Notes under the pieces: generated by a model
Databases searched by the model: none
What the model was told of the DNA's origin: nothing
What the model saw: only the letters and a program-made list of their open reading frames with translations
Made by a program: the position numbers and the translations under genes
Shown: positions 21,954-54,632 of the stretch, one piece after another
How positions within the stretch are numbered: the stretch's first letter is position 1
Layout of the letters: every line of letters begins with the position of its first letter
Source of the DNA: Syntrophorhabdaceae bacterium
GTDB taxonomy: Bacteria > Desulfobacterota > Syntrophorhabdia > Syntrophorhabdales > Syntrophorhabdaceae
NCBI GenBank assembly: GCA_963666485.2
Contig: CAXXUO010000002.1
Coordinates: forward strand, 288,001-352,000
Direction: 5' to 3'
DNA length: 64,000 nucleotides

Positions 21954-23666
21954 ATGACACGAGAAGGTTCAACGAAGAGTAAAGCCAGAACAGCACAGGT
22001 CTTAAGGCTCCTGCACGCATTGCTTTCAGATATCGCCGGGCCGGAGATCAGGCGGCTTGTCACCGCCGCCCTTTTCATTTGTCTCTCCACTTTTGGTTCC
22101 ATCGCCGGGCCTTTCCTCATAAAAGAGATCATAGATGTCGCGCTTCCGGCGAGGGATGTCCGCCTCCTCGGCATTTACTCGGTACTCCTGCTCCTGACGA
22201 ATGCGGTTGCGCTCGTTTTCTGGTCCATCCATTCCCGTTTCGCCATACGCTCATCCGAAAGGATCTTTCTGAAATTCCGCGAAAAGCTTGTTTCCGCCGT
22301 CTTGCGGAAGAGGCTCGATTTCTTCTCCCGGTACGGGTCGGGGGATATCCTTACGAGAGTTAATAACGACCTCGACTTTATCAGCCTTTTTCTCCATCAG
22401 ACGGTGCTGCGCTGCCTGGCGTTTTCCGTTTTCTCGATCGTCCTCCTGGCCGGGCTCATTATCTGGAACTGGCGGCTGGGCCTCACATTCCTGCTGACCC
22501 TTCCCTTTCTCCAGTTCTACGCCTGGAAAACATACGAGCCCGCGGCGAAACATTTCAGGTTATCCAAGGAGAAACTTTCATCGCAGAGCGAGACCCTTCT
22601 CGATATCCTCGCCGGCGTCCCTGAACTGAGGTTCTACCAGCAGGGCCGGGAGGCGGTCCGGCGCTTCCGGCGCAACGCGGAGGCATATACCGAACAAAAT
22701 ATCCGGACGCTCATGATCAGTGATCATTTTTCGAACGGGCTCGATTTTCTCGGGGTACTGGTGCGGCTCCTGCCGTTCATCGTCGGCGGCTATCTTATCT
22801 GCCTCGGCTCATCCGACATTACGATAGGCATGCTCGTTGCCTATTTTGTCATATTCTTCCGCCTCGCGCTCCAGATATTCGCCATTTTTCAAGGCATCCT
22901 TGCATCCGCACAGGCGCTGCCCTCATTGCAGCGCCTGAAAGAACTCCTGGATTTTCCCGAAGATACCGAGCCCGAAGAGTTCGGCATCGATGAGGTCCCT
23001 GACGCGACCGATATTGAATTTAACGATGTCTCGTTCGCTTATCCGAACGGTCATCCCGTTTTTACAGGCCTCAACCTCCGTGTCAGCCAGGGAGAAAAGG
23101 TGGCCATCATGGGCCAGAGTGGATCCGGCAAAAGCACGCTCGCGCAGCTGATCACGCGGTTCCTTGCCCCGAGTTCCGGCCATGTGCTTTTCGGAGGCAA
23201 GGATGTCAGATCGTACCCCCTGGCGTTTTACCTGAGCTTTTTCGCCTATGTCCGGCAGGAGGCCCATTTATTCAAGGTCAGTTTCAAGGACAATATCGCG
23301 ATGGGGTGGTACGGGGTCCCCCTGGACCGCATCAAGGAAGCGGCGTCCCTTGTCCGCATGAACGACGTAATCGAGCGATTGCCGATGCACTATGACACCG
23401 TGTATGCCGAGGACGGCACGAATCTTTCCGGCGGGCAGAAACAAAGGATCGCTCTCGCGCGGGCGCTTATCCGGGACCCCCATATCCTGGTCCTCGACGA
23501 ATTCACCTCCGGGCTCGACCCCCAGGTGGAAAAAGAGATACTTGACGACATGTTCGCATTGTTCGAGAAACAGACGATCATATGCATAACCCATAAACAA
23601 TCGGTCGCCGACAGGTTTCAGAGGACCATTACGATCGGCCAGGCCGTGCACTCTCCCATTTCGTGA
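21954..23666 (+). CDS. ABC exporter, fused permease/ATP-binding protein
   Basis: N-terminal TM domain (SGDILTRVNNDL); Walker A GQSGSGKS, signature LSGGQKQRIALAR, Walker B ILVLDEFTS, H-loop ITHK. Confidence 0.93.
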   Translation: MTREGSTKSKARTAQVLRLLHALLSDIAGPEIRRLVTAALFICLSTFGSIAGPFLIKEIIDVALPARDVRLLGIYSVLLLLTNAVALVFWSIHSRFAIRSSERIFLKFREKLVSAVLRKRLDFFSRYGSGDILTRVNNDLDFISLFLHQTVLRCLAFSVFSIVLLAGLIIWNWRLGLTFLLTLPFLQFYAWKTYEPAAKHFRLSKEKLSSQSETLLDILAGVPELRFYQQGREAVRRFRRNAEAYTEQNIRTLMISDHFSNGLDFLGVLVRLLPFIVGGYLICLGSSDITIGMLVAYFVIFFRLALQIFAIFQGILASAQALPSLQRLKELLDFPEDTEPEEFGIDEVPDATDIEFNDVSFAYPNGHPVFTGLNLRVSQGEKVAIMGQSGSGKSTLAQLITRFLAPSSGHVLFGGKDVRSYPLAFYLSFFAYVRQEAHLFKVSFKDNIAMGWYGVPLDRIKEAASLVRMNDVIERLPMHYDTVYAEDGTNLSGGQKQRIALARALIRDPHILVLDEFTSGLDPQVEKEILDDMFALFEKQTIICITHKQSVADRFQRTITIGQAVHSPIS

Positions 23667-23713: not shown

Positions 23714-24700
23714 ATGATCAAATTGACGCCGGATGAGGTCAGGGAACGTTTCGGGAAATTCTATTATGAATCCTTCCTCACAATAGTGGATAGTGAAAAA
23801 AGTAAGATCGAGATAGTCGAAACCTTCGGCAATTATCCCGGCAGTGCGGAATGGACTGCGATAAACAGGTGCCGGGCAGGAGGAATAATCGAGTCCTATG
23901 AAATATACGGGCAGACATCGTATATCAGGGCCAGGCTGGGCGAATCTCCCGTTCATTTCGGGCCCGCGGATGCCGAGCAGGGCGGACAGGCGCTGCAGGG
24001 GGCGCTGGTCGAAGGTGACCGGGTCAGGACAAAATGGATCGGCATCGCAGGCATGAGCCTGAGCACATGCGGTTCCCTGACGCAGGCCCCGGGGGTCATC
24101 GAAGCGTGGTACCCCTCCGAAGACGACCTCAATGTCGGGGGCAATAAGACAGGGCGTGTCGAGATCATCTCTCCGGCGTACGAAAAAATAAGCTTCGGTA
24201 TTGACGATACGGACGACCCGAGCGGCGGGGCAACATTCGCGCTTATAGTGAACGCGCGGCTCGAGGCGGGCAAGATCCCCGGGGTACACCCTCTTATGGT
24301 CAGGTTTGCCCAGTTGCTGCCGAAGTGCCCTTATAAAACGACGAACTGTACGTCGTCATTTATGTCCTTCGCGGTCAGGCCGGGTACAGCCCGGAAGGTC
24401 ATCGATGTCATCGTGGACATGGTCAGGTCTCAATCACGCTCCGATGATGCCGCAATCGCCGTGCTGAGCGGTATAGGTGTGCCCGGGAACCTGGTTGCCT
24501 TCGGGTGGGATGCGAAAAGGCGCATGATCTCGCTCGACGAGGCATATGCGTTGGATGGCAAAGAAGGGGTTGATCTGATCCCCGTGGGACCCGGCAAAAA
24601 GGGGCTGATCGGCGCATTGGCTGCACTTGGCCTCTCCGAAGAAAAATATGCCGCCGCCCTCGAAAATGATAAAGGTTTTGACCTTATCAGAAGATGGTAG
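23714..24700 (+). CDS. methanogenesis marker protein 11 (Mmp11) homologue, TiaS-N-like GIDDTD domain
   Basis: N-terminal region ..IEIVE..EW..NR.RAGG, GGQAL..VEGD.V.T.W.GIAG, QAPGV; then SFGIDDTD..GGATF, QL.P.CP.KTTNC.S and GLIGALAALG. Recognised from family memory, not from a search. Confidence 0.75.
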   Translation: MIKLTPDEVRERFGKFYYESFLTIVDSEKSKIEIVETFGNYPGSAEWTAINRCRAGGIIESYEIYGQTSYIRARLGESPVHFGPADAEQGGQALQGALVEGDRVRTKWIGIAGMSLSTCGSLTQAPGVIEAWYPSEDDLNVGGNKTGRVEIISPAYEKISFGIDDTDDPSGGATFALIVNARLEAGKIPGVHPLMVRFAQLLPKCPYKTTNCTSSFMSFAVRPGTARKVIDVIVDMVRSQSRSDDAAIAVLSGIGVPGNLVAFGWDAKRRMISLDEAYALDGKEGVDLIPVGPGKKGLIGALAALGLSEEKYAAALENDKGFDLIRRW

Positions 24701-26231: not shown

Positions 26232-26232
26232 A

Positions 26233-27901: not shown

Positions 27902-27911
27902 TGTGAATTAT

Positions 27912-29054: not shown

Positions 29055-29098
29055 GACCCTTTTCCTTCCCCTTTCACGTCAGTTAACATGGTGCCCCT

Positions 29099-29572: not shown

Positions 29573-29805
29573 GCACGACCTCCTTTTTTCGGAACTATCG
29601 ATCTATGCGAACAGACAGATGTGCCCGGTGGACAGCCGACAGAAAGGCGAGGGAGAGAAATTCCATCGTCTGCGGGATTTGGTTTCAGGCATGATGGGGG
29701 GTAATTAGCGGCGCAGGTCTGCGCCAGCGGTATACTTCTTTGCTGCAAAGGCTTCCTTACCCGTCGATCCAGAAATGCTCTCCGCTCGCCCAGTAATGAC
29801 TTCAT
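29569..29805 (-). CDS. possible small protein (78 aa)
   Basis: Its stop overlaps the kinase ATG (ATGA); N-terminal ERRAFLDRR; otherwise unrecognised. Confidence 0.25.
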   Translation of the reverse strand: MKSLLGERRAFLDRRVRKPLQQRSIPLAQTCAANYPPSCLKPNPADDGISLPRLSVGCPPGTSVCSHRSIVPKKGGRA

Positions 29806-29936
29806 AACCCTTAGGGTATCAGTCGGACCGCATTTCGTCTGTCGTCCGGTGTGAACGAATGGTGTCGTCTAATGATTATTTCCCGGTACGGGAAAAAGAG
29901 TGTACATTGTGTTATGGGCCCGCGTGACCGTGCGGA

Positions 29937-31716: not shown

Positions 31717-31888
31717 CCCACTGTAAGTAATGCACTATGGATTAATTATGTCAAAATAATTTTGATCATATCAAGGCCTGTTTCCTCTTTTCAACGATCA
31801 TTGATGCCGTTTGTCAACATCGGACGACAGACGCGCCCTATCCTGCCGATTAAACTTGAGGTCAAAAAAAGAGTATAAGGATGACGCT

Positions 31889-33640
31889 ATGGGCCTAGGC
31901 AGCGACCTGTTCAGAAAAAAATCGGTTTCATCCGTTTTGTCATCAGATTACGAGGGTACAGCCGGAAACGGCGAGGCGAGTCTTGTCAGGGCGCTTGGCG
32001 TACGGGACCTGACCGCCCTCGGGATCGCAGCGATCATTGGCGCCGGGATCTTTTCGGCCATAGGAAATGCGGCGTACTGGGGTGGTCCGGCAATAATCTT
32101 TCTCTTCATTTTTACAGCCTTTGCCTGCGGGTGTACCGCCATGTGCTACGCTCAGTTCGCTTCCATTATCCCGATATCGGGGTCCGCGTATACCTATGCC
32201 TATGTTGTCTTCGGTGAACTGGCCGCGTGGATCATGGGGTGGGACCTGCTTATGGAATATGCGATCGGCAATATAGCCGTGGCGATCTCCTGGAGCAACT
32301 ATTTTGTCGAACTTCTGGCCGGCTACAATATTGCCATCCCGGATTTCCTTGTCATCGACTACAGGTCAGCATTAAGCGGCGCCGAGGTCATTCAGGGGCA
32401 TCTCGCCTCCGGCCATACCATGGACACCATCGCGGGATTGCCGGGGGCAACGCTCCTTATGCGGGCTTTTTCAGCGTGGCAGGGTGCGCCCGTCGTGTTC
32501 GGGTACAGGATAATTTTCAATCTGCCGGCACTTATAATCATACTCATGGTCACCGTGCTCATTTATATCGGCATACAGGAATCGAAGCGCGTGTCCAACG
32601 CGATGGTCCTCGTAAAGGTCCTCACGATAATCCTCGTCATCGTAGCGGGTTCTTTTTATATACGGCCTGCGAACTGGATGCCCTTTGCGCCAAACGGCCT
32701 CGATGGCGTCATGAAAGGGGTTTCGGGGATCTTCTTCGCATATATAGGCTTCGATGCCCTGTCGACGACTGCGGAGGAGTGCAGGGACCCGCAACGGGAC
32801 CTCCCCCGGGCAATGTTCGGCGCATTAGGGGTATGCACGGTGCTCTACGTACTGCTTGTCCTCGTTCTTACCGGGATGGTCCATTACAGCAAACTCCAGG
32901 TCGGCGACCCTCTCGCGTTTGCCTTTGGCAAACTCGGCGCCAACGTGCAATGGCTTATGGGGATCATAGCCGCAAGCGCGGTCGTCGCGATGGCATCGGT
33001 TCTTCTCGTGTTCATGCTGGGGCAGCCCCGCATATGGATGGCCATGAGCCGTGACGGGCTTCTCCCCCCGGCATTCTCAGCGATACACCGGAAGTTCAGG
33101 ACGCCCTGGCTGGCTACCATCATGACGGGCCTGTGCGTGGGGGTCCCGTCTTTGTTCATGAACCTCAACGAGGTCACAGACCTGTGCAGTATCGGCACCC
33201 TTTTTGCCTTCAGTGTCGTGTGTGCGGGCACCCTTATATTCGACATTACCGGTCACAAAGGGACAGGCAAGTTCCATGTGCCCTATATTAACTCACGGTA
33301 TGTATTCACCCCCGCCCTGGTCATCGTCGTCGCGGTCTATTTCTCCTTATGCCCGCAAAAACTGATCCTTTTTCATGGCATCCAGCGCATCGGGATCGCG
33401 AGCCCGGTTATCATCTTTGCGTTTTTCAGCCTTGTCCTCTGCTATTTTTCCGTGACGCGCCAGCTCTCCCTTATACCTCTCATAGGGCTCGAAAGCTGTA
33501 TGTACCTTATGACCGAGCTTACCATGAGTTCCTGGCTCAGATTTACGATCTGGATGGGCTTTGGACTGGCGATCTATTTCTTTTACAGCCGGAACAGGAG
33601 CAAGCTCCGCACTGTCATGAAGGGTCCGCTTCCCGAATAG
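31889..33640 (+). CDS. APC-family amino acid permease (CAT/YfnA-like)
   Basis: LFRKK, GIAAIIGAGIF, SGSAYTY, FFAYIGFDA.ST.AEE..DPQRDLP, QPRI..AMSRDGLLP; start set to MGLGS. Confidence 0.93.
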   Translation: MGLGSDLFRKKSVSSVLSSDYEGTAGNGEASLVRALGVRDLTALGIAAIIGAGIFSAIGNAAYWGGPAIIFLFIFTAFACGCTAMCYAQFASIIPISGSAYTYAYVVFGELAAWIMGWDLLMEYAIGNIAVAISWSNYFVELLAGYNIAIPDFLVIDYRSALSGAEVIQGHLASGHTMDTIAGLPGATLLMRAFSAWQGAPVVFGYRIIFNLPALIIILMVTVLIYIGIQESKRVSNAMVLVKVLTIILVIVAGSFYIRPANWMPFAPNGLDGVMKGVSGIFFAYIGFDALSTTAEECRDPQRDLPRAMFGALGVCTVLYVLLVLVLTGMVHYSKLQVGDPLAFAFGKLGANVQWLMGIIAASAVVAMASVLLVFMLGQPRIWMAMSRDGLLPPAFSAIHRKFRTPWLATIMTGLCVGVPSLFMNLNEVTDLCSIGTLFAFSVVCAGTLIFDITGHKGTGKFHVPYINSRYVFTPALVIVVAVYFSLCPQKLILFHGIQRIGIASPVIIFAFFSLVLCYFSVTRQLSLIPLIGLESCMYLMTELTMSSWLRFTIWMGFGLAIYFFYSRNRSKLRTVMKGPLPE

Positions 33641-38856: not shown

Positions 38857-40572
38857 ATGGAGATCAAAGGCAAACGGATTCTTGTCCTCGGCGGATACGG
38901 GGAAGTAGGGTCGGCTGTCTGCCGCCAACTTCTCATTTATGAACCGGAAATGCTGGTCGTTACATCATTACGGCAATCAGAGGCACACGATGCAGCGAGG
39001 GAGCTGCAAGACGAATATCATTTGCCGTGTGAAATAAAACATGACTTCGGGAATCTTTTTGTCCGTTTCGAACATCGGGACAAGACGATAGACGCGATCA
39101 TCAAGGACCCGATGTTGCTGCGCCAGCTGGTCGATGACAACCTTGCCGAATTGAACAGGGAGATCCTCGGTTCGTCGACGCTGTACAGGCTCATAACCGA
39201 ATACAATCCGGATATCATCATCGATTGCATCAATACGGCGACGGCGCTGGCGTACAGGGATGTTTTCTACGCCTACAGCACGATGCGCGCGGACATGGCC
39301 GCTGGTGCTGCAAATGACGCCGCCGATGTCGGGTATTCGCTCCTTGCGACCATTGCTATTCCGCCGCTCATTCGCCACGTCCAGATCTTGAATGAGGCGA
39401 TGAAAAGGGTCGGCACCCAGGTTTATCTGAAAATAGGGACAACCGGTACCGGCGGAATGGGGCTTAATATACCGTTCACCCACGGGGAAGAAAGCCCGTC
39501 ACGGTTGCTCATGGCAAAGTCCGCACTTTCCGGCGCCCAAACAATGCTGCTCTTTACAATGAACAGGACGCCCGGCTGGCCGGTCATCAAGGAGATCAAG
39601 CCCGCTGCGATGATCGGATGGAAAGAGGTGGCAAAAGGTGCCATAACCCGCCCCGGGAAACAGTTCAACGCCTATGATTGTGATGGAACGGCGGCATATC
39701 CATTGACGCGGGGCCTCACGTTCCAGTTCAACGGGACGAAGCATGGCACACAGCTGCAGCAGAAGACGCTCGAAGGAATTTATGTCGATACGGGGGAGAA
39801 CGGGATATTCTCCCGTGACGAATTCAAGCTCATCACGGCACTCGGGCTTATGGAATTCGTTACGCCGGAAGAGATCGCCCATACCGCCATGCTTACGATA
39901 CTCGGTATCGATACATCGAAGGACGTCATCGGGGCAATTGAGGGAGCGGTCATGGACCCGAGCTACCAGGCCGGCTGCCTCAGGGACTCCGCAGTCAAGC
40001 GTATGGATGCCATGGGAAGACAGGGCGTCGGATATGGCTATTTAGGGCCGCATCCCACCAAACTTCTCTTTGAGGCAAGCCTTTTGCGCCAGTGCTTCGG
40101 AAATGTCGAGAACATCCTCGCCCTCACACCGGCGGAGCTTGCTTCGGCCCTGGAGGATTACGTTTATAACAACCAGGCATTCCGGATAAATCCGATCTCG
40201 ATCGGCATTCCCATTCTCGCGTCTGACGGGTCTAAACTTCTTTGCGCGACAAGGCCCAATCGGGACAAGAGCTGGGAAGTCGAACCCTGGGAGATAACCG
40301 ACGAGTCCATCGATACATTTGCCGCACGTGAATGGATAGACTTGAGGCCCCGCAACATGGCGCGGTGGCAGGACCGTTTCCGGAATGTTCTCGGTGAAGT
40401 GCTCTGTTCTTCTCTGTGCACAAGCTCCCGGTCCCACGGCGGAGAATGCATTGAAACACGGGATGGAGCAACACCGATCGATGCCGGCGAGGTCGTAGCG
40501 CGCGTCCTCATCGACGAGTTCGGTGGCGGCCGCAACAAGGCCTATACATCGGCGGGAGGAAAATACATATAG
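38857..40572 (+). CDS. large Rossmann-fold (SDR-like) oxidoreductase of unknown function
   Basis: N-terminal ILVLGGYGEVG dinucleotide-binding motif; IIDCINTAT; KIGTTGTGGMGLNIP.THGEE; CAGGAGG RBS. Confidence 0.75.
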   Translation: MEIKGKRILVLGGYGEVGSAVCRQLLIYEPEMLVVTSLRQSEAHDAARELQDEYHLPCEIKHDFGNLFVRFEHRDKTIDAIIKDPMLLRQLVDDNLAELNREILGSSTLYRLITEYNPDIIIDCINTATALAYRDVFYAYSTMRADMAAGAANDAADVGYSLLATIAIPPLIRHVQILNEAMKRVGTQVYLKIGTTGTGGMGLNIPFTHGEESPSRLLMAKSALSGAQTMLLFTMNRTPGWPVIKEIKPAAMIGWKEVAKGAITRPGKQFNAYDCDGTAAYPLTRGLTFQFNGTKHGTQLQQKTLEGIYVDTGENGIFSRDEFKLITALGLMEFVTPEEIAHTAMLTILGIDTSKDVIGAIEGAVMDPSYQAGCLRDSAVKRMDAMGRQGVGYGYLGPHPTKLLFEASLLRQCFGNVENILALTPAELASALEDYVYNNQAFRINPISIGIPILASDGSKLLCATRPNRDKSWEVEPWEITDESIDTFAAREWIDLRPRNMARWQDRFRNVLGEVLCSSLCTSSRSHGGECIETRDGATPIDAGEVVARVLIDEFGGGRNKAYTSAGGKYI

Positions 40573-41535: not shown

Positions 41536-43095
41536 TTACTTGTACAAAAAAGCTTCCGCGTCATTTTTAATCGCGCTTATATCCGAAACATTGATATACC
41601 CGTTATTATTCCGGCGATGAACCAACTTTCCCTCTAAATACGTAGCTTTTATATTACGATCATCGCCCAATGTCATGACCACAAATAATTTTTCCGCGAA
41701 ACCCTGGGCTGGCGATATCTCACGTCTGTCAATCCTTGCATTTATGCTATCAATCCGCAGGTTCTGCAATTCTGTTTCCGCAAATGCCAGTACAATAAAA
41801 TCGGCTTCATTGCCGGGCCGGAAAGTGCCTATCTTGTCTTCAAGCCCTAAAACGAGAGCACCGCCAAGCGTAGCCTGGTACAGTCCTTCAAATACCGATA
41901 ATGGGATTTTCACAGGCATTTCGTTCTGCTGCAGCAAGACAACTTTGTAAGCCTCATTCAACGTTTGGAGCATATTAAATGTCGAGCCCCCTCCGACATC
42001 TGTTCCCATGCCGAGTTTTATTTCACGCCCTTTTTTCTTGGCGTCCCGCAGCTTAAAAAGACCGCTTCCCAGGAATAAATTTGAAGTTGGGCAAAATATA
42101 ACGGCTGATCCCGTGTCATGCAGCATCTGGAATTCCGCGTCGCTCAAGTGTATGCCATGAGCGAAAATGCTGCGATTCCCCGTCAAGTTGAATTTATGAT
42201 AAACATCGAGGTAATTCTTGCTATCCGGAAAGAGGGATTTGACCCATTCGCATTCGGCAAGGTTCTCCGAAAGGTGCGTATGCACATAGGCCGTTGGGTA
42301 TTCCTTTGCAAGCTTCGAAGCCATGATTAATTGCCCGGGCGTCGAAGTAGGTGCAAATCGGGGTGTAATTGCATACAATAAACGTCCCCGGCCATGCCAT
42401 TTCTCCATAAGCTCCTTGGATTGTTCATAGCTGGTTTGTGCTGTGTCGAGAAGATAGTCTGGCGCATTTCTGTCCATCATCACCTTGCCGGCAATAAGCC
42501 GCATGTTCAACTTTAAAGCTTCGTTAAACAATGCATCGACTGATTGAGGATGCACGGTACCCAGGACAAGTGCTGTAGTCGTTCCATTTCGAAGCAATTC
42601 TTTTAAGAACATTTTCGATATTTTATGTGCATGCTCGTATTTTTCGAATTGTCTTTCCGTGGGAAAAGTATACAACGTTAACCATTCAAGCAATTGCTGA
42701 CCATAAGATCCTATGATTTCGGTCTGAGGATAATGTATGTGACTATCTATAAATCCCGGCATGATCAGGTCATTTTTATATTCGGAATTAATCTCCGATG
42801 TGCCGGCCAATTCAACCAATTGATCCTTCAGAATGTTATATTCATCAACGGCCGCTATTTTCCCCTTTACAACAACCAATAACCCATCGTCAATATACCT
42901 GTATGATTCGTCTGGCCGGGCTGTTTTTACCGGGTCATCGATAAAATAGAGAATTCGTGCACGAAATGAACCGGAAGCATCTGATGAAAGTATCTTTTGA
43001 TCCTTAGCATTACCATTCACAGCATCAACACCAATCATGATAAACGCCATCATCAAGATTATTACTAAAACCCTGGGAAAATATTGCTTTGTCAA
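41536..43095 (-). CDS. guaD: guanine deaminase with N-terminal signal-like extension
   Basis: PGFIDSHIHYPQ, QLLEWL..YTFP.E, YAITPRFAPTS, HTHLSEN, AHGIHL, FCPTSNLFLGSGLF, GTDVGGG, LGDDR. Confidence 0.93.
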   Translation of the reverse strand: MTKQYFPRVLVIILMMAFIMIGVDAVNGNAKDQKILSSDASGSFRARILYFIDDPVKTARPDESYRYIDDGLLVVVKGKIAAVDEYNILKDQLVELAGTSEINSEYKNDLIMPGFIDSHIHYPQTEIIGSYGQQLLEWLTLYTFPTERQFEKYEHAHKISKMFLKELLRNGTTTALVLGTVHPQSVDALFNEALKLNMRLIAGKVMMDRNAPDYLLDTAQTSYEQSKELMEKWHGRGRLLYAITPRFAPTSTPGQLIMASKLAKEYPTAYVHTHLSENLAECEWVKSLFPDSKNYLDVYHKFNLTGNRSIFAHGIHLSDAEFQMLHDTGSAVIFCPTSNLFLGSGLFKLRDAKKKGREIKLGMGTDVGGGSTFNMLQTLNEAYKVVLLQQNEMPVKIPLSVFEGLYQATLGGALVLGLEDKIGTFRPGNEADFIVLAFAETELQNLRIDSINARIDRREISPAQGFAEKLFVVMTLGDDRNIKATYLEGKLVHRRNNNGYINVSDISAIKNDAEAFLYK

Positions 43096-45712: not shown

Positions 45713-46423
45713 TTATATAATACGCCCCACATCAAGAATCGTGGCGTAGATCATAACGGCCGCCATGAAAACCCAACCGGCAACCGCGAGCGGATAATGG
45801 AGCTTGACGAATTTCCTGTTGAGCTTCTCCAGTGAATACAGCACTATCTTTCCTCCGTCAAGGACGGGTATGGGTAAGAGGTTGAGAACGGCTAGGTTGA
45901 TGCTCACAAATCCCGCGAAGGAAAGCAGGTTTTCAATGCTCGACCCTATATAGCGGCCGCCCTGAGAGACAACCCCGGCAATCCCCGACAATTCCCCGTG
46001 ATGCGAGAAGAGCAAAGGCATGATGGACGCGGTCCTCCAAAAAATCTCCGCCGTCCGGGCAAAGGGGTTGATGACGACCGTGTCGATCCCGAAACCGGAA
46101 CGGAGAACCCCGGCAAAGGCAAAGCAGAAGAGCGGCAGAACAAGGCTTGCCGCCGGCCCGCCTGCTGCCAGCATGACCCGGCTTAAAATGGGAAGATCGA
46201 AGAAGGCGTTTTCGTCCTCGATATCGGGCATGACGTATCCGCCGAGCGGAACGAGGGAAAAACGGTACTCCGTCCCTCCCCGCGTCATTCCGAAAAGCCT
46301 CGGGCCAAAACCGACGGAAAAGACCCTGACCGATATCCCGGTCAACTTCGCCGCGACAAGATGCCCGAACTCATGGGCAAGTATCACGAAACCGACAGCG
46401 AACACCGCATAAACATAACCCAT
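45713..46423 (-). CDS. site-2 protease (M50, RseP-like, no PDZ)
   Basis: HEFGH, FSVGFGP, PLGGYV, GGP, NLLPIPVLDGG; start set to MGYVY after AAAGGAG. Confidence 0.92.
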   Translation of the reverse strand: MGYVYAVFAVGFVILAHEFGHLVAAKLTGISVRVFSVGFGPRLFGMTRGGTEYRFSLVPLGGYVMPDIEDENAFFDLPILSRVMLAAGGPAASLVLPLFCFAFAGVLRSGFGIDTVVINPFARTAEIFWRTASIMPLLFSHHGELSGIAGVVSQGGRYIGSSIENLLSFAGFVSINLAVLNLLPIPVLDGGKIVLYSLEKLNRKFVKLHYPLAVAGWVFMAAVMIYATILDVGRII

Positions 46424-46593
46424 TGATCGTACTCCTTTAATTTTCGAGACAATACAACGTTCAAGCAGAAAAGTAAACGGGCCCGGCAAAGGAAATGAAC
46501 GTTCCACCCGTCTGGTTTGACGAATCGTCAATAAACGACAGCAGATGTCAACTGGGAATGACACGCGCACATGGGGTAGTTATAGTGACTCCG

Positions 46594-47796
46594 CTATTTC
46601 TTTGCCATGGGATCGTATATTTTGTCTTTGATAAGGATGCCGGGCAATAGGGCGGCAGCCAGGTATGCAAGTGCGCAGGTGATGATACCCGCTCCGATTG
46701 AGCCTTCTACGGCGATCCAACCGATCATTGCAGGAGAGATGATGGAACCGATACGGCCGGCGTTGTACGATGTTGACATTGCCGTTCCCCGGACAACGGT
46801 GGGAAAGCTCTCGGCAAGGTACGTCGCGTTTATAGCGTATAGCCCCGCGTACAGTCCGCCGTAGATGAGCAGAAGCCATGCCGCGTTGGAACGTGTCGCG
46901 ACGATAATTATAAGCGGTATTGCAAAGCTGATGCACAGCCCGGTTATGACCCACATGCGCCGCCGGCCGAAACGGTCGGCAAGGATACCGATGACCGGCT
47001 TTGCAAGAATACCCATGGTGTAACTGGCAGCGAGGTACCACCCCATATTCTTGAGGTCGACATGGAGGTCCCGTACCAGGTAGCTCGGCAGCCATGTGCT
47101 TCCGCCGTAAAAACCAAACTGGAGAAAGACGGAGGTAATGCTCCAGAGAATGAACGTCCGGCGCAGCGAATTGTTATTCCAGATGATCGCAAATTCATTC
47201 TTTTTCCCGCCTGGCGCCGCCTTATGTGCCGATGACCAGCTCGCAGGGTCGGCGGCCTTTAAGAGCATACCGAGACAGACCATGCCCGGGATCGCCGAGA
47301 TAAAGAACAGGGGCCGCCACCCCCACGATGTGATGACAAGACCGGTAAACAGGGCCGCGATCACATAGCCCGTTGACCATCCGGCGATGAGCACGGACAG
47401 AACGGTGCCGCGTATCTTCGTGGGAACGTACTCGGCGGCGAGAACGTTGCCGACACTGTACACGGCGCCTATCCCCAGGCCGGATATTATCCTCATCGCC
47501 GCTATCTGCCAGTATTCCTGGCATACCCCGATGATCGCGGTGCCCAGGGAAAAAATGAGGACTGACCACCGGATCACGCGAACCCGCCCGATACGGTCGG
47601 CTGCCCATCCTGCCGTGATCCCGCCAATGCCCATTCCGATCAGGGTATACGTCCCCAGCATCCCGGCGAGGACCGTTGATATCTGGAGGTCTTTCATGAG
47701 AACCGGCAAGGCAAGGGCCAGGACCTGCAGATCTATGCCGTCCGCGACCATGGCCAGCGTCACGGCCGTTATGACGAACGCGGACCGCCTGTTCAT
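46594..47796 (-). CDS. MFS transporter, aromatic acid:H+ symporter-like
   Basis: ADGIDLQ, GWAADRIGRV, AEYVP..RG, GILADRFGRR, ESFPT.VRGT; its ATG overlaps the mtxX stop (ATGA). Confidence 0.9.
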   Translation of the reverse strand: MNRRSAFVITAVTLAMVADGIDLQVLALALPVLMKDLQISTVLAGMLGTYTLIGMGIGGITAGWAADRIGRVRVIRWSVLIFSLGTAIIGVCQEYWQIAAMRIISGLGIGAVYSVGNVLAAEYVPTKIRGTVLSVLIAGWSTGYVIAALFTGLVITSWGWRPLFFISAIPGMVCLGMLLKAADPASWSSAHKAAPGGKKNEFAIIWNNNSLRRTFILWSITSVFLQFGFYGGSTWLPSYLVRDLHVDLKNMGWYLAASYTMGILAKPVIGILADRFGRRRMWVITGLCISFAIPLIIIVATRSNAAWLLLIYGGLYAGLYAINATYLAESFPTVVRGTAMSTSYNAGRIGSIISPAMIGWIAVEGSIGAGIITCALAYLAAALLPGILIKDKIYDPMAKK

Positions 47797-48626
47797 TTTT
47801 TTGCAGGCAGGGTTTTTTTCGTTTTTGGCAAACCCGCCAATGCCGACGCACAGCATATCGCGTTATGGTACGTTCTGCCCGCCCGGGATGTGTCCACGTA
47901 AACAAGGTCGGCCCCGACAGCCGGGCCGCCCATTCCGGTCCCCTCCCCCACGAGACACAAAGAGCGGTAGATCAGGTTGCCGCTGATGCCGTCAGGGGCA
48001 AGGATGAAATTGTATTTTTCGATAGCTTCCTCGAAAAGGATATACATGCACGTCGCGTTGTACCCTTTCGCCGTGAGGATATCAGCGGCCTTCTCCGCGC
48101 TGCGTATGCTCCGGTCCGTTACCGCCGACCTGCCGATATCCCCTTTTCTCCCTCCGCCGAGGACCGCGATATTCTCATCGATCCCGAGCCGTCTCATGAG
48201 GTCCGCGCCAAGCTGGCCGAGCCTCACTTTTTCCCTGACCCCCCAGGCGTCATCGATACCGACCGGGGCGAAAAAGAACGGGGTAACATGCGGTGGCTGC
48301 AGTATCGCAAGGCGAAGGAGCTTCCTGATACCGTACTGTTCCTTGAGGGCCTTCATCAAAGGGTTTATGTCAAGGGACCCCCGGACGATGCCTGCCACTT
48401 CCCCTCTTTTGACCATCCCGACGAGTTCTGCCTCGGGGGATTGAGATACGACGTTTTCGATCCCGCCGGCCAGTTTTTCCCGGCTCACGATAACGACACG
48501 GGCGTACCCTAACTCTTGTGCTTTCTCGGCGCTCTCCAGGACCTTCTTTTCGTACCCTTTTTCTGCACCAATGGCGATCCGGGCCCGGGACATCCGTGCC
48601 CGGTCGATGATCAGATCGGTTATCAT
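47793..48626 (-). CDS. mtxX: MtxX / methanogenesis marker protein 4 homologue (phosphate acetyl/butyryltransferase fold)
   Basis: PE..LV..V..G.V...VRGSL, FFFAPVGIDD, AVLGGGR.GD.GRS, IL.EEAI, APDGISGNLIYRSL..VG.G..MGGP, YVDTSRA. Recognised from family memory, not from a search. Confidence 0.85.
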   Translation of the reverse strand: MITDLIIDRARMSRARIAIGAEKGYEKKVLESAEKAQELGYARVVIVSREKLAGGIENVVSQSPEAELVGMVKRGEVAGIVRGSLDINPLMKALKEQYGIRKLLRLAILQPPHVTPFFFAPVGIDDAWGVREKVRLGQLGADLMRRLGIDENIAVLGGGRKGDIGRSAVTDRSIRSAEKAADILTAKGYNATCMYILFEEAIEKYNFILAPDGISGNLIYRSLCLVGEGTGMGGPAVGADLVYVDTSRAGRTYHNAICCASALAGLPKTKKTLPAKK

Positions 48627-48858
48627 GGCCACCCCTTTCATTGTCTCGCACCTCATTATTCCCGAATGGGACAAATCATTTAATACAATTAAAGCATATC
48701 TTTTTTCTCATATCAGGCGAGGCACATGAAATCAATACTTATCTACAACCTTATCCAATTGCGGACTACTCACAAGGTACATGCATGCATGATACATTGG
48801 TCCCCAGATAACCTCCGATGCACTTCAAGCCAGTTAAGAAACCGAAAGAGGAGGCGCA

Positions 48859-50133
48859 ATGAAATTCTTCAGAAATCTCTCTCAAACCCAGCTCATTTTC
48901 ATCGGAATGCTCAGCGGAATGTTGATCGGGTTCGCTTTTCCCGGGATTGGCATCAGGCTTGAAGCGGTCGGAATCATTTTCATTCGGCTCGTAAAGTCGA
49001 TCATTATCCCGATCATTTTCGCGACACTGGTCGTGGGGATCGCCAAACATTCGGACCTGAAGGCTGTCGGAAGGATGGGAATCAAATCACTCATATATTT
49101 CGAAGTGATCACGACAGCGGCACTATTTCTCGGCCTGATAGCCGCAAACATAACAAAACCCGGGCTCGGCATTACACTCGGGGCCAACGGCGGTTCGGGG
49201 GCCGGATTGGGTCCCGCGAAAGAAATGAATATGAAAGACATTATTGTTCATATATTTCCTGACAATTTCTTTGAATCGGCGGCCCGCGGCGATATCATGG
49301 AGGTTGTTGTTTTTACAATACTGTTCGCCATAGCGGTGAGCCTCATCGGCGACAAAAAGAAACCCATAATCGAATTCTGCGAATCGCTTTCTGAGGTCAT
49401 GTTCAAGTACACCGCCATCGTGATGCGCTTCGCACCCGCGGGCGTTGGTGCGTCCATCGCTGCGGTCGTGGCAAGCAAAGGGATCAATGTCCTGTTAAAA
49501 CTGTGCCTGCTCATCGCTACGTTCTACGGTGCCGCGATCGTATTTATCTTCGTAATATTGCTCCCCGTAGCCGTCGTCTTCCGGGTACCGATCAGGCAAT
49601 TCCTGGCGGCGGTCAAAGAGCCCGCAATGATCGCGTTTTCAACGTCCAGTTCGGAGGCGGCCCTGCCGAAAGCGATGGAGAACATGGAAGCCCTCGGGGT
49701 GCCAAGGAGAATAGTCTCGTTCGTGATCCCGACGGGGTATAACTTCAACCTTGACGGAACAACGCTTTACCTGGCGCTTGCGTCCCTATTCGTTGCACAG
49801 GCGGCAGGCATGCACGAAAGCCTGGCCCAGCAGCTCGCCATAGGCTTTACCCTGATGCTGACGAGCAAGGGAGCGGCCGGGGTGCCCCGCGCGTCACTTG
49901 TCGTCCTTGCAGGGACACTGTCATCATTTGGCCTGCCGGTCGAGGGTGTGGCGGTAATCCTTGGCATCGACACGATAATGGATATGGGACGAACTGCGAT
50001 CAACGTAACGGGAAATTGCCTGGCGACCGTGATCATTGCAAAATGGGAAGGCGTATTCCGCAACGACACTGACGCTGTACCGGAAGAAATAGTCGCAGAA
50101 ACTCGAGAGGCCTGCGAGGCGCTGGACGGGTAA
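48859..50133 (+). CDS. dicarboxylate/amino acid:cation symporter (GltP/DctA family)
   Basis: FIRLVKSII.P, AFSTSSSEAALP, PTGYNFNLDGT, LTSKGAAGVP, DMGRTAINV.GN. Confidence 0.95.
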   Translation: MKFFRNLSQTQLIFIGMLSGMLIGFAFPGIGIRLEAVGIIFIRLVKSIIIPIIFATLVVGIAKHSDLKAVGRMGIKSLIYFEVITTAALFLGLIAANITKPGLGITLGANGGSGAGLGPAKEMNMKDIIVHIFPDNFFESAARGDIMEVVVFTILFAIAVSLIGDKKKPIIEFCESLSEVMFKYTAIVMRFAPAGVGASIAAVVASKGINVLLKLCLLIATFYGAAIVFIFVILLPVAVVFRVPIRQFLAAVKEPAMIAFSTSSSEAALPKAMENMEALGVPRRIVSFVIPTGYNFNLDGTTLYLALASLFVAQAAGMHESLAQQLAIGFTLMLTSKGAAGVPRASLVVLAGTLSSFGLPVEGVAVILGIDTIMDMGRTAINVTGNCLATVIIAKWEGVFRNDTDAVPEEIVAETREACEALDG

Positions 50134-50343
50134 ACCTGCGACGACCCCATCATCATTATCGGTCCACAGGCAACTACAGGATGCAATGACAGACAAGCGT
50201 GGGTGCGCCAAGCGATAATTTGGGCCATACAAGGCACGCATGTGCTGCGGGAAATGAAACAGCGTATTCCGGGTTCGGAAAATAAAACACAAAATTGAAG
50301 CAATCCAAAAACGATCCGGGTCTTCGCTGATTGCGGAGGAGAA

Positions 50344-51786
50344 ATGAATCTATTCGGCCCCCTGCTCAAACGGGAGCATGGCAAAAAACAGCCTTTCATG
50401 CCTCTTGGCCCTTTTGAATTGAGGCTGCCGTTCATACATTACCGGTTCGAGGCAGCCGATTTCACACAGGGCCTCATTATGTGCGCCGTCTGCCTCGGCA
50501 TTATCCCTATATTGATGGATTACCTCGGGATGCCTTTCGAGGTGGCCATCACCATCGTGATATTGAATGGTTTCCTGTATCTCTGGCATGCGCATCTGGG
50601 GGATCCGGTCGTACCGGGCTGGATCACCCCTGCCATACCCCTCCTTCTTTTGTGGCTCAAATCGTTTCCCGAGGGCGTGCCCCGAATGCACGCCCTCATT
50701 GCATTTGAATGCGAACTGGGCGTCATCGCCTTTATCCTCGGGGTGACGGGCCTCGCGAAACGGCTCGTCGATCTCGTCCCGGACGCGCTGAAAGCGGGCA
50801 TATTGCTTGGAGCCGGGGTCGCGGCGGTGCGGCTCGTGTTTGAAACGGGCGGACGCTTCGACAGTTATCCCTGGACCATAACGATCGCGCTCGGCCTGGC
50901 TTTCTATATTCTCTTCTCCAACCATTTCAAGAACCTTCGCACGCGCTATAAATTCCTGGGTTTCGTCTCAAATCTCGGGCTCATACCGCCGATGCTCCTG
51001 GCCATCATCATTGCCCCCGTCCTGGGCGAGCTTCCCTGGCCTGATATAAAGTGGGGATTTACCGTTCCCCAGTTCGGGACCCTGTTCAGGGAATGGACGC
51101 CCTTCGCCGGGCGGATCGGCTTTCCGCCGCTTTCCTTGTACCTTTCCGCTGCACCGCTCGTTGCGGCGGTCTATATCATTCTCTTCGGAGAACTGATCCA
51201 GGCCGATGCGTTGATCGATGAGGCACGCGAATTCCGCGGCAGCGACGAGAACATCCACTTTGATGCAAACCGCAATAATGTGATCCTCGGCCTGAGAAAT
51301 ATGGTCATGTCGTTTTTCGGGCCCGATGCATCGATGTGCGGCCCTATGTGGGCAGCCATGCAGGTCGTGGAATGCGAGCGCTACAAACACGGTCAGAAGG
51401 CGATGAACTCGATCTTCGGAGGCGTTGCGTCATTCAGATGGGGAACATTCACCGGGTATTTCTTTCTTCCCATCGTGACCCTCGTCAAACCGATCCTTCC
51501 CATAGCACTTTCCCTGACCATGCTTGTACAGGGTTATGTTGCGGTAAGAGTGGGGATACTCAAGGCGCGCACCTTCAACGACCTCGGTGTGGCCGGGATA
51601 GTCGGGGCGGTCCTGATAACACGCGGTGCCGCGTACGCCTTCGGCGTGGGGGTCGTTTTGTGCGCCCTTGTGTACGGCAGGGATTTTTTCAGGAGATGGC
51701 ACAGGTACGACACGGTCAAAGACCCCGTTTTTAATTGCCGCGTCGCGGAAGATACCGTCGAATTGGCCCCGGTCGAAAACGATTGA
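50344..51786 (+). CDS. polytopic membrane protein, probable NCS2/SLC23-like permease
   Basis: 480 aa, many TM segments; RLPFIHYR.E, LGDPVVPGWITP, YIILFG, GPMWAA; co-oriented with abfD. Confidence 0.7.
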   Translation: MNLFGPLLKREHGKKQPFMPLGPFELRLPFIHYRFEAADFTQGLIMCAVCLGIIPILMDYLGMPFEVAITIVILNGFLYLWHAHLGDPVVPGWITPAIPLLLLWLKSFPEGVPRMHALIAFECELGVIAFILGVTGLAKRLVDLVPDALKAGILLGAGVAAVRLVFETGGRFDSYPWTITIALGLAFYILFSNHFKNLRTRYKFLGFVSNLGLIPPMLLAIIIAPVLGELPWPDIKWGFTVPQFGTLFREWTPFAGRIGFPPLSLYLSAAPLVAAVYIILFGELIQADALIDEAREFRGSDENIHFDANRNNVILGLRNMVMSFFGPDASMCGPMWAAMQVVECERYKHGQKAMNSIFGGVASFRWGTFTGYFFLPIVTLVKPILPIALSLTMLVQGYVAVRVGILKARTFNDLGVAGIVGAVLITRGAAYAFGVGVVLCALVYGRDFFRRWHRYDTVKDPVFNCRVAEDTVELAPVEND

Positions 51787-51817
51787 TATCAGATATGATA
51801 GATCTGGAGGTATAAAG

Positions 51818-53338
51818 ATGCCGTTGAAAACACCCGAGCAATACGAGCAGAGCCTGCGTTCCATGAAATTCAACCTCTACCTGATGGGAGAACGCGTCCG
51901 GGGTGTCGTCGACCACCCCATTGTAAGACCTTCGATGAATTCCGTTAAAATGACGTATGCCCTCGCCCGGGACCCGGCCCACGAGGATATTATGACAGCA
52001 ACGTCCCACCTGACGGGACAGAAGATAAACCGTTTTTGCCATTTACACCAGGGGACCGATGACCTTGTTAAAAAGGTCAAGATGCAGAGACTCCTCGGAC
52101 AGATGACGGGATCATGTTTCCAGAGGTGCGTCGGCATGGATGCAATGAATGCCGTCGACAGCACGACCTGGGAGATGGACGCAGCGCTCGGCACCGTCTA
52201 CCACGAAAGGTTTCTGAACTTTCTCGAGATGGTCCAGGCAGACGATCTCGTAGTTGACGGGGCCATGACTGACGTAAAGGGCGATCGATCGCTTTCACCG
52301 TGCCGGCAGGCGGACCCGGACATGTTCTGCCGCGTTGTCGAGCGTTTAGGCCACGGGATCATCGTACGGGGCTGCAAGGCCCACCAGACCGGTGCGCTCA
52401 ATTCACACTGGGTCCTTGCAATGCCCACCATAACGATGAGCGGCGATGATAAAGATTATGCGTTGTGCTTTGCGGCGCCGGCCGATGCAGAGGGCATTAC
52501 ATATATCTACGGGCGACAGTCCTGCGACACGCGCAAGCTCGAGGGCGGCGCGCTCGATGCCGGGAACACGGTGTTCGGCGGTCACGAAGCGATGATGATC
52601 TTCGATGACGTTTTCATCCCCTGGGAAAATGTTTTTATGTGCGGTGAACATGAATTCACCGGCATGCTCGTCGAACGCTTCGCCGGGTACCATCGGCAAA
52701 GTTACGGGGGATGCAAGGTGGGTGTCGGCGATGTCCTGATAGGGGCAGCCGCCCTGGCGGCTGAATTCAACGGTGCGTCAAAGGCGTCTCACATAAAGGA
52801 CAAGATCATTGAAATGGTGCATCTCAATGAATCACTCTTCTCCTGCGGCATCGCCTGTTCTGCCGAAGGCTCGCCTACCGGCTCGGGAACATACCTTATC
52901 GACCTCCTGCTCGCAAATGTCTGTAAGCAGAATGTCACCCGTTTCCCGTACGAAATAGCCCGGCTGGCAGAGGACATCGCGGGGGGTCTCATGGTCACCA
53001 TGCCATCGGAAAAAGATCTCAACCACCCTGTCGCCGGGAAATATATCAGGAAATACCTCGCCGGGGATGCCGCGGTGCCGGTGGAAGACCGGCTGCGGAT
53101 CTTAAGGCTCATAGAAAATATGACGCTGGGGACTGCGGCCGTAGGCTACCGGACCGAATCGATGCATGGGGCCGGTTCGCCGCAGGCACAGCGCATTATG
53201 ATCTCCCGGCAGTGTGAGCTCGATCGCAAAAAAGAGCTTGCCCGCGTGATCGCCGGCATCGGTGAAACGTCGTGCCCCGCCGCCTCGTTTGACCCGGCAA
53301 TGAGCGGACAGGCACCATTCAACAATTATGAGGAATAA
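51818..53338 (+). CDS. abfD: 4-hydroxybutyryl-CoA dehydratase / vinylacetyl-CoA isomerase
   Basis: CFQRCVGMDA (Fe-S Cys), GAMTDVKGDR, KAHQTG, YGRQSCDTRK, YHRQSYGGCK, RTESMHGAGSPQAQR; start set to MPLKT after GGAGG. Confidence 0.93.
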   Translation: MPLKTPEQYEQSLRSMKFNLYLMGERVRGVVDHPIVRPSMNSVKMTYALARDPAHEDIMTATSHLTGQKINRFCHLHQGTDDLVKKVKMQRLLGQMTGSCFQRCVGMDAMNAVDSTTWEMDAALGTVYHERFLNFLEMVQADDLVVDGAMTDVKGDRSLSPCRQADPDMFCRVVERLGHGIIVRGCKAHQTGALNSHWVLAMPTITMSGDDKDYALCFAAPADAEGITYIYGRQSCDTRKLEGGALDAGNTVFGGHEAMMIFDDVFIPWENVFMCGEHEFTGMLVERFAGYHRQSYGGCKVGVGDVLIGAAALAAEFNGASKASHIKDKIIEMVHLNESLFSCGIACSAEGSPTGSGTYLIDLLLANVCKQNVTRFPYEIARLAEDIAGGLMVTMPSEKDLNHPVAGKYIRKYLAGDAAVPVEDRLRILRLIENMTLGTAAVGYRTESMHGAGSPQAQRIMISRQCELDRKKELARVIAGIGETSCPAASFDPAMSGQAPFNNYEE

Positions 53339-53339
53339 T

Positions 53340-54632
53340 ATGGCCGACACATGGAGAAGCACGTATCGCAAAAAAATAATGAGTACCGAGGGGGCCCTTC
53401 GGGCCGTAAAAGACGGTGACCGCGTTGTTGTCGGACATGCGTGCGGCGAACCGCAGGCACTCGTCAAGGCGCTTGTCGGACGGGCGGCCAGATTGAATGA
53501 TGTAGAGGTCGTCCATATGGTCGCGCTCGGTCCTGCGGAATATGCCCAGAGCGGAATGGAAGGAAGGTTCCGGCACAACTCCTTTTTCGTGGGAGCCGCC
53601 AGCCGTAAGGCCGTCTCGGAAGGCAGGGCCAGGTTCACCCCCTGTTTTTTCTCAGAGATACCCCGGCTTTTTCAGAGTGGCATCCTTCCGGTGGATGTGA
53701 CGCTTATGCAGGTCGCGCCGCCCGATCCCAAAGGGTTCTGCAGTCTTGGCGTATCCGTCGACTACACGCTGGCATCCGCGCGGTCCGACCGGATAACCAT
53801 CGCGCAGGTCAACGCGCATATGCCGCGCACCCGCGGCGAGAAGATCCATCTCGATGAGATCGACATCATTGTGGAACACGACGAGCCGATAATCGAGATA
53901 CTGCCGCCGAAGATAGGACCTGTCGAACGTGCCATCGGTGAAAACATAGCGGGGCTCATAGAGGACGGATCGACGCTTCAGCTCGGGATAGGAGGCATCC
54001 CCGATGCGGTCCTGCTCTTTCTGGGACACAAGAAAGACCTCGGCATCCACAGCGAGATGTTCTCGGATGGGGTTATGGAACTTGCAAGGGCCGGGGTGAT
54101 AAACAACAGGAAGAAAACGATAAATCCCCGCAAGTTCGTGGCGACATTCCTGATGGGTACGCGAAAACTTTACGATTTTGTCGATGACAACCCCGATATC
54201 ATGATGAGAACGGTGGATTATACGAATGATGTGCATATAATCGGGCAGCACGAAAGAATGGTCTCGATCAATTCGGCGATCCAGGTCGATTTCATGGGAC
54301 AGGTCAATGCCGAGATGATCGGCAAGGACCAGTTCAGCGGGGTCGGGGGCCAGGTCGATTTTGTCCGCGGAGCGAGCCGTTCCCGAGGGGGAAAATCGAT
54401 CATAGCCCTACCCTCGACGGCCCGGAACGGAGAGGTCTCGCGTATCGTGCCCCATCTCGACACAGGCGCAGCGGTCACAACGTCGCGCGGAGATGTCCAG
54501 TTCATCGTCACGGAGTACGGAGTGGCCGACCTGAGGGGGAAAAGCCTGTGTCAGCGGGCCGACGAGCTTATCAGGATCGCCCACCCTGATTTTCGGTATA
54601 ACCTTTCATGCCTGGCCGCCGGGGTCGTCTGA
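53340..54632 (+). CDS. cat2: 4-hydroxybutyrate CoA-transferase (Cat2/AbfT; acetyl-CoA hydrolase/transferase family)
   Basis: GHACGEP, G.CSLGVSVDY, LQLGIGGIPDA, LGIHSEMFSDG (catalytic Glu), SGVGGQVDF.RGA, VTEYGVADLRGK, IAHPDFR; directly follows abfD. Confidence 0.88.
   Translation: MADTWRSTYRKKIMSTEGALRAVKDGDRVVVGHACGEPQALVKALVGRAARLNDVEVVHMVALGPAEYAQSGMEGRFRHNSFFVGAASRKAVSEGRARFTPCFFSEIPRLFQSGILPVDVTLMQVAPPDPKGFCSLGVSVDYTLASARSDRITIAQVNAHMPRTRGEKIHLDEIDIIVEHDEPIIEILPPKIGPVERAIGENIAGLIEDGSTLQLGIGGIPDAVLLFLGHKKDLGIHSEMFSDGVMELARAGVINNRKKTINPRKFVATFLMGTRKLYDFVDDNPDIMMRTVDYTNDVHIIGQHERMVSINSAIQVDFMGQVNAEMIGKDQFSGVGGQVDFVRGASRSRGGKSIIALPSTARNGEVSRIVPHLDTGAAVTTSRGDVQFIVTEYGVADLRGKSLCQRADELIRIAHPDFRYNLSCLAAGVV

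Follow-up and report, generated by a model that had tools for sequence, protein, structure and literature searches.

MtxX, or methanogen marker Mmp4, is represented by the TIGR03270 model and by the solved structure 9NZY, and here we analyze an mtxX gene found on the minus strand of a 64,000-nt stretch of contig CAXXUO010000002.1 from a Syntrophorhabdaceae bacterium (below, the window). The accessible part of PMC12978539, which covers methanogens and archaea, describes MtxX as possibly essential with its function unresolved, and names uppS, mmp2, mmp12 and mtxAH, not mmp11, as the mtxX neighbors. According to the same part, the MtxX ligand is expected to be both hydrophobic and acidic, the catalytic Asp of PTA is not conserved in MtxX, no butyrate bound in crystal soaks, and the PTA domains of MaeB are non-catalytic. 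The second marker considered here, Mmp11 (m17/DUF1743), is predicted to be an ATPase of indeterminate function in the portion of the PMC9635834 supplement available; the tree legends of this 2022 paper, as far as they could be consulted, show entries from Syntrophorhabdus and Syntrophus under both markers, numbered with consecutive accessions, and the passages available give both functions as undetermined. The available parts of PMC4153887, PMC9081873, PMC8305020, PMC11619418 and PMC4902934 contain nothing on MtxX or Mmp11 function, and no paper giving either protein a function or describing a bacterial module was found in the literature covered, most subscription journals being outside this coverage. 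A table in the accessible part of PMC10658910 gives coenzyme B among the requirements of Methanomicrobium mobile.

Very probably, mtxX of the window belongs to a module with Mmp11 rather than to the 4-hydroxybutyrate genes that lie across its upstream region. The best explanation of our observations is a module composed of Mmp11, MtxX, an MFS transporter and an ABC exporter, present in a few syntrophic Thermodesulfobacteriota: both enzymes group with Methanocella-type archaeal proteins, are encoded in one operon in relatives, evolve under purifying selection, and are accompanied by two bacterial transporters. The methanogen marker pair has been rehoused with bacterial transporters, and in the window it is split by a deletion yet kept. 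The constituents of the module and the relevant sites are as follows.

47793..48626, minus strand: mtxX (Mmp4), 277 aa, intact (TIGR03270, 9NZY by sequence and fold, dN/dS)
46594..47796, minus strand: MFS transporter, 400 aa, aromatic-acid/H+ symporter-like, candidate importer (family models, ATGA overlap)
48627..48678, minus strand: deletion scar of about 50 bp, at the site of the 1-kb mmp11 in locus L006 (blastn blocks against L006)
48709..48746, minus strand: promoter-like motif of the ancestral mmp11-mtxX operon, facing mtxX (conserved upstream of mmp11 in relatives)
23714..24700, plus strand: mmp11 of the "imperfect" subtype, 328 aa, with a C-terminal TiaS kinase domain, surviving paralogue (TIGR03280, fold, dN/dS)
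21954..23666, plus strand: ABC exporter, fused permease-ATPase, of bacterial origin (Pfam, co-occurrence with mtxX)

The mtxX open reading frame extends from the ATG at 48626 to the TGA at 47795-47793, and this stop codon overlaps the MFS start codon (47796-47794) as ATGA, yielding a translationally coupled layout. In the other direction, a divergent gap of 232 bp separates mtxX from the ATG of gltP at 48859, followed by a permease gene, abfD and cat2. Both the overlap and a divergent region of roughly 230 bp had been described in the first-pass annotation of this DNA, and our coordinates bear them out, while mmp11 and the ABC exporter, situated 23 kb off in the same window, had been absent from it. 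One public contig covers positions 46000-50500 without any difference and may come from the source sample; another contig, from a different study, retains the same gene order from 46604 to 50500, that is, from the MFS gene through the permease start, with approximately 85-91% identity and without an mmp11-sized insert.

With TIGR03270 the window protein reaches 185.3 bits (E 9e-55 over positions 3-201 of 204), 4.7 bits below the cut-off of 190 bits, and five of 81 archaeal matches likewise fall just below it, while on Pta/Ptb models it obtains 15-28 bits (NCBIfam cut-offs 282-413), and no Pfam match is observed. The best solved relative by sequence (E 2e-30) and by predicted fold is 9NZY. The cleft residues of the solved MtxX (R54, R74, R128, R134, N185, R189, D213, S215, R216) align with R82, R105, R160, R166, N217, R221, D245, S247 and R248 in the window protein, so that all nine match, the DTSR motif included, and each is conserved in 128-137 of 138 MtxX sequences (the window protein and 137 of 150 listed representatives, with 13 shorter than 230 aa left out). 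With Pta/Ptb (PF01515) the window MtxX shares the fold (TM about 0.7) and the Ser-Arg pair, S247 and R248 (the equivalence follows the accessible part of PMC12978539), but differs in its identity of 14-19%, extra cleft arginines and the catalytic Asp, which is not conserved: the corresponding position, +6 from R248 as located by offset and not by superposition, is occupied by His in the window protein and is variable in the alignment (T in 20, E in 17, L in 17, V in 16 and S in 15 of 138). Family scores, the distance from the outgroup (see below) and the fold match rule out an ordinary Ptb, and the gene is best identified as a true MtxX, as had been proposed from the sequence alone. The bacterial host is a new setting, without McrA and with the gene coupled to an MFS transporter and co-occurring with an ABC exporter, and not a different protein family.

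The gene is present in a single copy in the 99%-complete genome. The value of dN/dS is 0.07 relative to L006, indicating purifying selection and ruling out a decaying relic for the window copy (several deeper pairs used for dN/dS are saturated). An assembly chimera with a methanogen is ruled out as well, given that the flanks of the gene on the 669-kb contig are bacterial and the gene is also found in the complete chromosome of a relative; GC3 of mtxX (0.66-0.71) is similar to that of its neighbors (0.65-0.70).

The distribution of mtxX was studied in 69 genomes of the family, 96 of the order, 251 of a second order, and 150 other genomes of the phylum. It is present in just five of the 96 genomes of the order, all five being among the 69 of the family; the second order yields three strong matches, in genomes already sampled, and one weak match (G252, E 3e-11, in a 655-aa frame), and the rest of the phylum sample, one distant MtxX-like match. 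No relatives were found in plasmids or in the viral contigs searched. As the five family carriers are kin and may share one common island, their co-occurrence counts are not independent events. The 18 nearest clusters (62-92% identity) come from Syntrophorhabdaceae, Syntrophus and Syntrophaceae where named, and are followed by Methanocella proteins at about 50%; the host is probably Syntrophorhabdus-like. In a careful tree of 38 rows with a midpoint root, the bacterial proteins together with one unassigned protein (P0069) form a clade (100/98) beside Methanocella-type proteins (94/93), both nested in a larger clade (99/96) with a Methanocellales row; in a larger tree of 113 rows constructed in quick mode, the PTA domain outgroup is distant from the window MtxX. 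Since the bacterial clade is nested beside Methanocella-type proteins and the gene is rare, mtxX probably came to bacteria from archaea by transfer.

Gene neighborhoods were compared at seven bacterial loci beyond the window (L006-L012), found among the matches listed, the true number being at least seven. mmp11 is immediately upstream of mtxX in all six of these loci that have upstream DNA, the seventh, L009, having none. Comparison with L006 by blastn yields two blocks, L006:8261-8982 corresponding to window 49397-48679, and L006:9985-12030, to window 48638-46597. The alignment with L006 continues on either side of a 1-kb gap that coincides exactly with mmp11; the copy upstream of mtxX was deleted in the window. 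Moreover, a conserved motif that precedes mmp11 in L006, L007 and L176 precedes mtxX in the window (48709-48746), and probably represents the promoter of the ancestral mmp11-mtxX operon; it was not seen in L008 or L012, and is not among the six matches of a consensus promoter scan (6.9 expected by chance).

The mmp11 gene remaining in the window has 78% identity to the L006 copy (pS 0.74), compared to 89% for mtxX (pS 0.52), and, being more diverged from L006 than mtxX, is a paralogue of the deleted copy. It is under purifying selection (dN/dS 0.05-0.09). Two mmp11 copies are still present in genome G002, where the second (L176:7709-10546) is convergent with an exporter homologue between housekeeping genes; the window genome has no mmp11-exporter pair at that site. 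In the family, the four genomes with the MFS orthologue (see below) are also those with a strong mmp11 match, while in G006, the fifth carrier, mtxX begins at the contig end.

On TIGR03280 the window Mmp11 scores 163 bits over the full length, below the cut-off of 255.8, and the archaeal "imperfect" Mmp11 paralogues, 181-214 bits. It groups with the "imperfect" paralogue that precedes Methanocella-type mtxX, and the Mmp11 tree mirrors the MtxX tree, with a bacterial clade (100/100), one unassigned protein, and then Methanocella-type rows (99/98). Neither the canonical Mmp11 paralogue nor the radical SAM partner was found in the window genome. Four of the 153 non-bacterial mtxX loci among the matches listed, many of them short, carry the mmp11-mtxX pair, three Methanocella-type and one from Methanocellales. 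The structural model of Mmp11 (pLDDT 91) contains two domains. Residues 156-318 superpose with the kinase domain of TiaS, the tRNA(Ile2) agmatinylcytidine synthetase (3AMT, TiaS-ATP; Z 21.5, root-mean-square deviation 1.8 over 155 residues), and retain the ATP-site motifs GIDDTD, G-x-T, K-T-x-N and G-x-I-G-A-L-A-A. The match covers only the N-terminal part of TiaS, and Mmp11 adds an N-terminal domain of its own, for which a whole-model search gave no clear fold match; Mmp11 would not be expected to modify tRNA.

The best model for the MFS protein is TIGR00895 (aromatic acid/H+ symporter; 256 bits, below the cut-off of 418.55). The previously suggested link between mtxX and this gene holds in the family, as a close orthologue is found in four of the 69 genomes, all within the five mtxX carriers; it is adjacent to mtxX in three of them, about 4 Mb from mtxX in G079, and not found in the fragmented G006. 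A close match of the ABC exporter occurs in five of the 69 family genomes, exactly the mtxX carriers, and a homologue is located within 10 kb of mtxX in six of the seven listed bacterial loci and at about 11 kb in the seventh. More distant relatives of the exporter are found elsewhere with 40-51% identity, and in archaeal genomes with adjacent mmp11 and mtxX there are only matches of 26-28% in three of five and none in two of five, which marks the exporter as bacterial, not archaeal, in origin.

Across the divergent gap lie four further genes, to which mtxX had been linked in the first-pass annotation as a possible phosphotransacylase acting on acyl-CoAs of the 4-hydroxybutyrate, crotonyl or butyryl route or on the MFS substrate.

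48859..50133, plus strand: gltP/dctA-type dicarboxylate symporter, SDF family, divergent neighbor outside the module (family models)
50344..51786, plus strand: permease, 480 aa, NCS2/DUF3360-like, separate block (look-alikes)
51818..53338, plus strand: abfD, 4-hydroxybutyryl-CoA dehydratase, separate block (1U8V, E 6e-214)
53328..54632, plus strand: cat2-like 4-hydroxybutyrate CoA-transferase, separate block (3EH7, E 5e-149)

We reject this link on the basis of synteny and co-occurrence. None of the seven listed loci has abfD, cat2 or the permease within 10 kb of mtxX, and gltP is near mtxX in one of them (L006), where it is truncated and the genes after it have their homologues past the 4-hydroxybutyrate block in the window. 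Among the 69 family genomes, 21 have a close cat2, but the four mtxX carriers other than the window genome, two of them with a completeness of just 66% and 78%, do not, and the permease is found in two of the 96 genomes of the order. Some abfD gene is present in all five carriers tested; in the complete chromosome of G079 the sole match is about 630 kb from mtxX, and in the Syntrophaceae contig of G246 one of six matches is 13.6 kb from it. The motif in the divergent gap also precedes mmp11 at sites without a facing gltP. Hence the survey of bacterial mtxX neighborhoods largely fails to reveal a conserved connection to CoA metabolism, what persists being the gltP-permease arrangement in one close relative and the abfD paralogue of G246, and the neighboring 4-hydroxybutyrate genes look incidental to mtxX. 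The permease at 50344-51786, directly before abfD-cat2, has no Pfam or NCBIfam match, only NCS2/DUF3360-like look-alikes; it is rare in the order and is a candidate transporter of 4-hydroxybutyrate or 4-aminobutyrate.

To our knowledge, the last steps in the synthesis of coenzyme B, a cofactor needed by every methanogen, constitute a gap, and this synthesis includes an acyl-phosphate step, described in the literature of the 1990s. In a sample of 151 genomes of an archaeal phylum, mtxX is present in 81, and all 81 have a TIGR03280 match (in two of them only the most distant Mmp11 paralogue and in one only a fragment), while seven genomes have such a match and no mtxX. The two genes are adjacent in 15 of the 81 carriers. 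Tandem mmp11 genes occur in 12 archaeal genomes, and in each of the eight examined they are arranged as mmp11-mmp11-variant (LipS2-like) radical SAM-IORalpha-like-aksA-D-E-x-F-like. Out of 13 further archaeal loci, two of three Methanocella-type ones have aksA/D-like genes close to mmp11, four have mmp11 beside a radical SAM gene, three before an IORalpha-like gene, one beside mtxX, and two show none of these. Archaeal Mmp11 paralogues are found in operons that resemble the coenzyme B genes aksA, aksD/E and aksF and also encode a protein similar to thiamine enzymes and a LipS2-like radical SAM protein, and this gene set points to chain elongation, decarboxylation, sulfur insertion and activation, as coenzyme B synthesis would need. 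The bacterium, unlike these archaea, holds only two candidate late enzymes and the transporters.

The archaeal operon (L222:1024-10699, also L229-L235) consists of ftr, two mmp11 genes, the variant radical SAM gene, an IORalpha-like gene, aksA, D, E, a 275-aa gene and aksF; the 275-aa gene, which has no NCBIfam match, is a candidate gene for an additional step of coenzyme B synthesis. Many genomes of the archaeal sample also carry a third, more distantly related paralogue of Mmp11, about 370 aa long and with an N-terminal extension (L226:6748-7872, L227:8556-9656); in five of the genomes that have it, mtxX was not found.

TiaS uses ATP to phosphorylate a carbonyl before amine attack. The simplest joint reading of Mmp11 and MtxX, judged from sequences and models, is that of a kinase followed by an acyl-phosphate transferase, and we regard this predicted chemistry as evenly balanced between right and wrong. 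According to this scheme, the MFS transporter would import a carboxylic acid, which Mmp11, via its TiaS-type ATP site, would phosphorylate to an acyl-phosphate; the latter would bind MtxX at the PTA-type Ser-Arg pair, and MtxX would use it to acylate an anionic amine (an amino acid) and not CoA, the acylated product being removed by the ABC exporter. In methanogens the same two enzyme types would be likely to perform the missing late steps of coenzyme B synthesis, from 7-mercaptoheptanoate via an acyl-phosphate to N-acyl-threonine, plus a phosphorylation. In G228, a genome from another member of the phylum, a distant MtxX-like gene sits between the genes for both parts of a PPDK-type kinase (L192:242-3441, PPDK_N and PEP-utiliser genes); while its product is without several of the cleft residues, the arrangement might reflect a second kinase partner with a different phosphoryl donor, and points to the kinase-transferase reading.

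A substrate of the coenzyme B type in the bacterium is a tentative suggestion, doubtful at present. It seems rather unlikely that the syntroph completes coenzyme B, or its threonine amide, from a precursor of the 7-mercaptoheptanoate type that it imports, and exports the product through its ABC transporter. If true, it would mean that the bacterium supplies a methane-forming cofactor to its archaeal partner, using enzymes that stem from a Methanocella-like partner, and the exporter would make the cofactor available for cross-feeding from syntroph to methanogen. Mmp11 and MtxX would then account for the final enzymes still missing from the coenzyme B route, and would be targets for methanogen-specific inhibitors. 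The bacterial module isolates the two proteins from methanogenesis, suggesting a two-enzyme assay with ATP, an acid and an amino acid, and steers assays away from 4-hydroxybutyryl-CoA.

Several observations weigh against the kinase-transferase scheme and its extension to coenzyme B. The position +6 from the Ser-Arg pair is His in the window protein and Glu in Methanocella-type proteins as well as in seven of the 19 bacterial ones, so that CoA chemistry by MtxX is still conceivable. The directions of transport ascribed to the MFS and ABC transporters are taken from family membership alone. mtxX is split over two frames in G001, the second mmp11 of G002 is paired with an exporter without mtxX, and among the listed non-bacterial mtxX loci mmp11 is in view at only the four mentioned above. 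The archaeal aks-linked loci were hand-picked and are kin, the aks calls are at the family level, several being under the model cut-offs, and mtxX itself is not beside those operons; the synthase-aconitase-dehydrogenase cluster near Methanomassiliicoccales mtxX scores as isopropylmalate synthase and may represent leucine genes. McrA was not found in the 99%-complete host genome, nor was the variant radical SAM gene or, by tblastn, an aksADEF operon, the matches being leucine-like and citrate/isocitrate clusters (the second hacAB-like cluster looks like citrate synthase-aconitase-isocitrate dehydrogenase). As the upstream coenzyme B genes were not found, the bacterium would need an outside precursor, and could only finish or repurpose the route. 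Finally, in the literature covered we found no passage on the coenzyme B acyl-phosphate route or the TiaS mechanism.

Repurposing is itself an alternative: the same two-step chemistry might serve to acylate some amine or amino acid that has nothing to do with coenzyme B, the product being exported as a signal or a detoxified conjugate and sensed by neighboring regulators. We consider this improbable, if not negligibly so. It agrees with the patchy distribution in the order, with the failure to find McrA and upstream coenzyme B genes in the host, with an island in three same-genus genomes that carries amino-acid permeases, a two-component pair, anti-sigma-type ATPases and GNAT proteins, and with L012, where a gene of the anti-sigma type and a Cache-SpoIIE sensor are close by; yet such regulators were not seen in L008 or L010, both short loci, and the cleft residues match those of methanogen MtxX with no sign of an altered pocket. 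An alternative with the coenzyme B chemistry retained is that the module completes a coenzyme-B-like thiol for the heterodisulfide-reductase-like complexes of the bacterium itself, with the exporter clearing an excess or a by-product. This seems quite unlikely: the genome does hold two full-length HdrB-like matches, but their scores of 189 and 124 bits are under the TIGR03288 cut-off of 345, and a core redox role is hard to combine with the failure to find mtxX in 64 of the 69 family genomes.

Two other explanations concern the activity of MtxX, and we hold both very improbable. Phosphotransacylase activity on 4-hydroxybutyryl-, crotonyl- or butyryl-CoA, with mtxX and abfD-cat2 under common regulation, would be compatible with the PTA/PTB fold and the Ser-Arg pair, with the genome having no stand-alone Pta/Ptb detected (its only PTA_PTB match sits in a 761-aa frame), with the divergent layout retained up to the permease start in the close relative, and with the abfD paralogue of G246. 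The neighborhoods oppose it, as neither abfD nor cat2 accompanies mtxX in the listed loci, the four other family carriers have no close cat2, abfD is remote in G079, and the gap carries the upstream motif of the mmp11 operon itself; so do the lack of conservation of the catalytic Asp and, in the accessible part of PMC12978539, the butyrate soaks. The non-conserved Asp would also suit a non-catalytic ligand-binding partner that regulates Mmp11 or the transporters, similar to the PTA domains of MaeB, which are among the fold neighbors and are non-catalytic according to that part of PMC12978539, but the near-invariant D-T-S-R and six more cleft residues over 138 diverse sequences fit catalysis better than sensing.

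Other genes of the window and of its relatives deserve mention. A regulatory island at 24726-33640, common to two same-genus relatives, encodes an HATPase-GNAT fusion, a DHA2-type MFS protein, a GNAT protein, an anti-sigma-type ATPase, a response regulator, a histidine kinase and an APC permease; the histidine kinase is represented by two open reading frames in the window (30587-31147 and 31144-31716) and by one of 859 aa in L181. An amino-acid permease gene is followed by that of a 571-aa protein (38857-40572, plus strand), which two same-genus relatives retain in their island and which has no Pfam match in the local library, its Atlas look-alikes carrying PF27054 (beta-methylindole-pyruvate reductase C-terminal family). 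In the Syntrophaceae locus L008 (4801-7461), the mmp11-mtxX pair is preceded by genes for an ABC ATPase, a CobW-type GTPase and an Fe-S protein, together with a further open reading frame that presumably encodes an Rrf2-type regulator. The minus strand of the window also encodes a 1921-aa autotransporter (14361-20126) and an amidohydrolase (41536-43095), the latter in a stretch of lower GC content (about 0.45).

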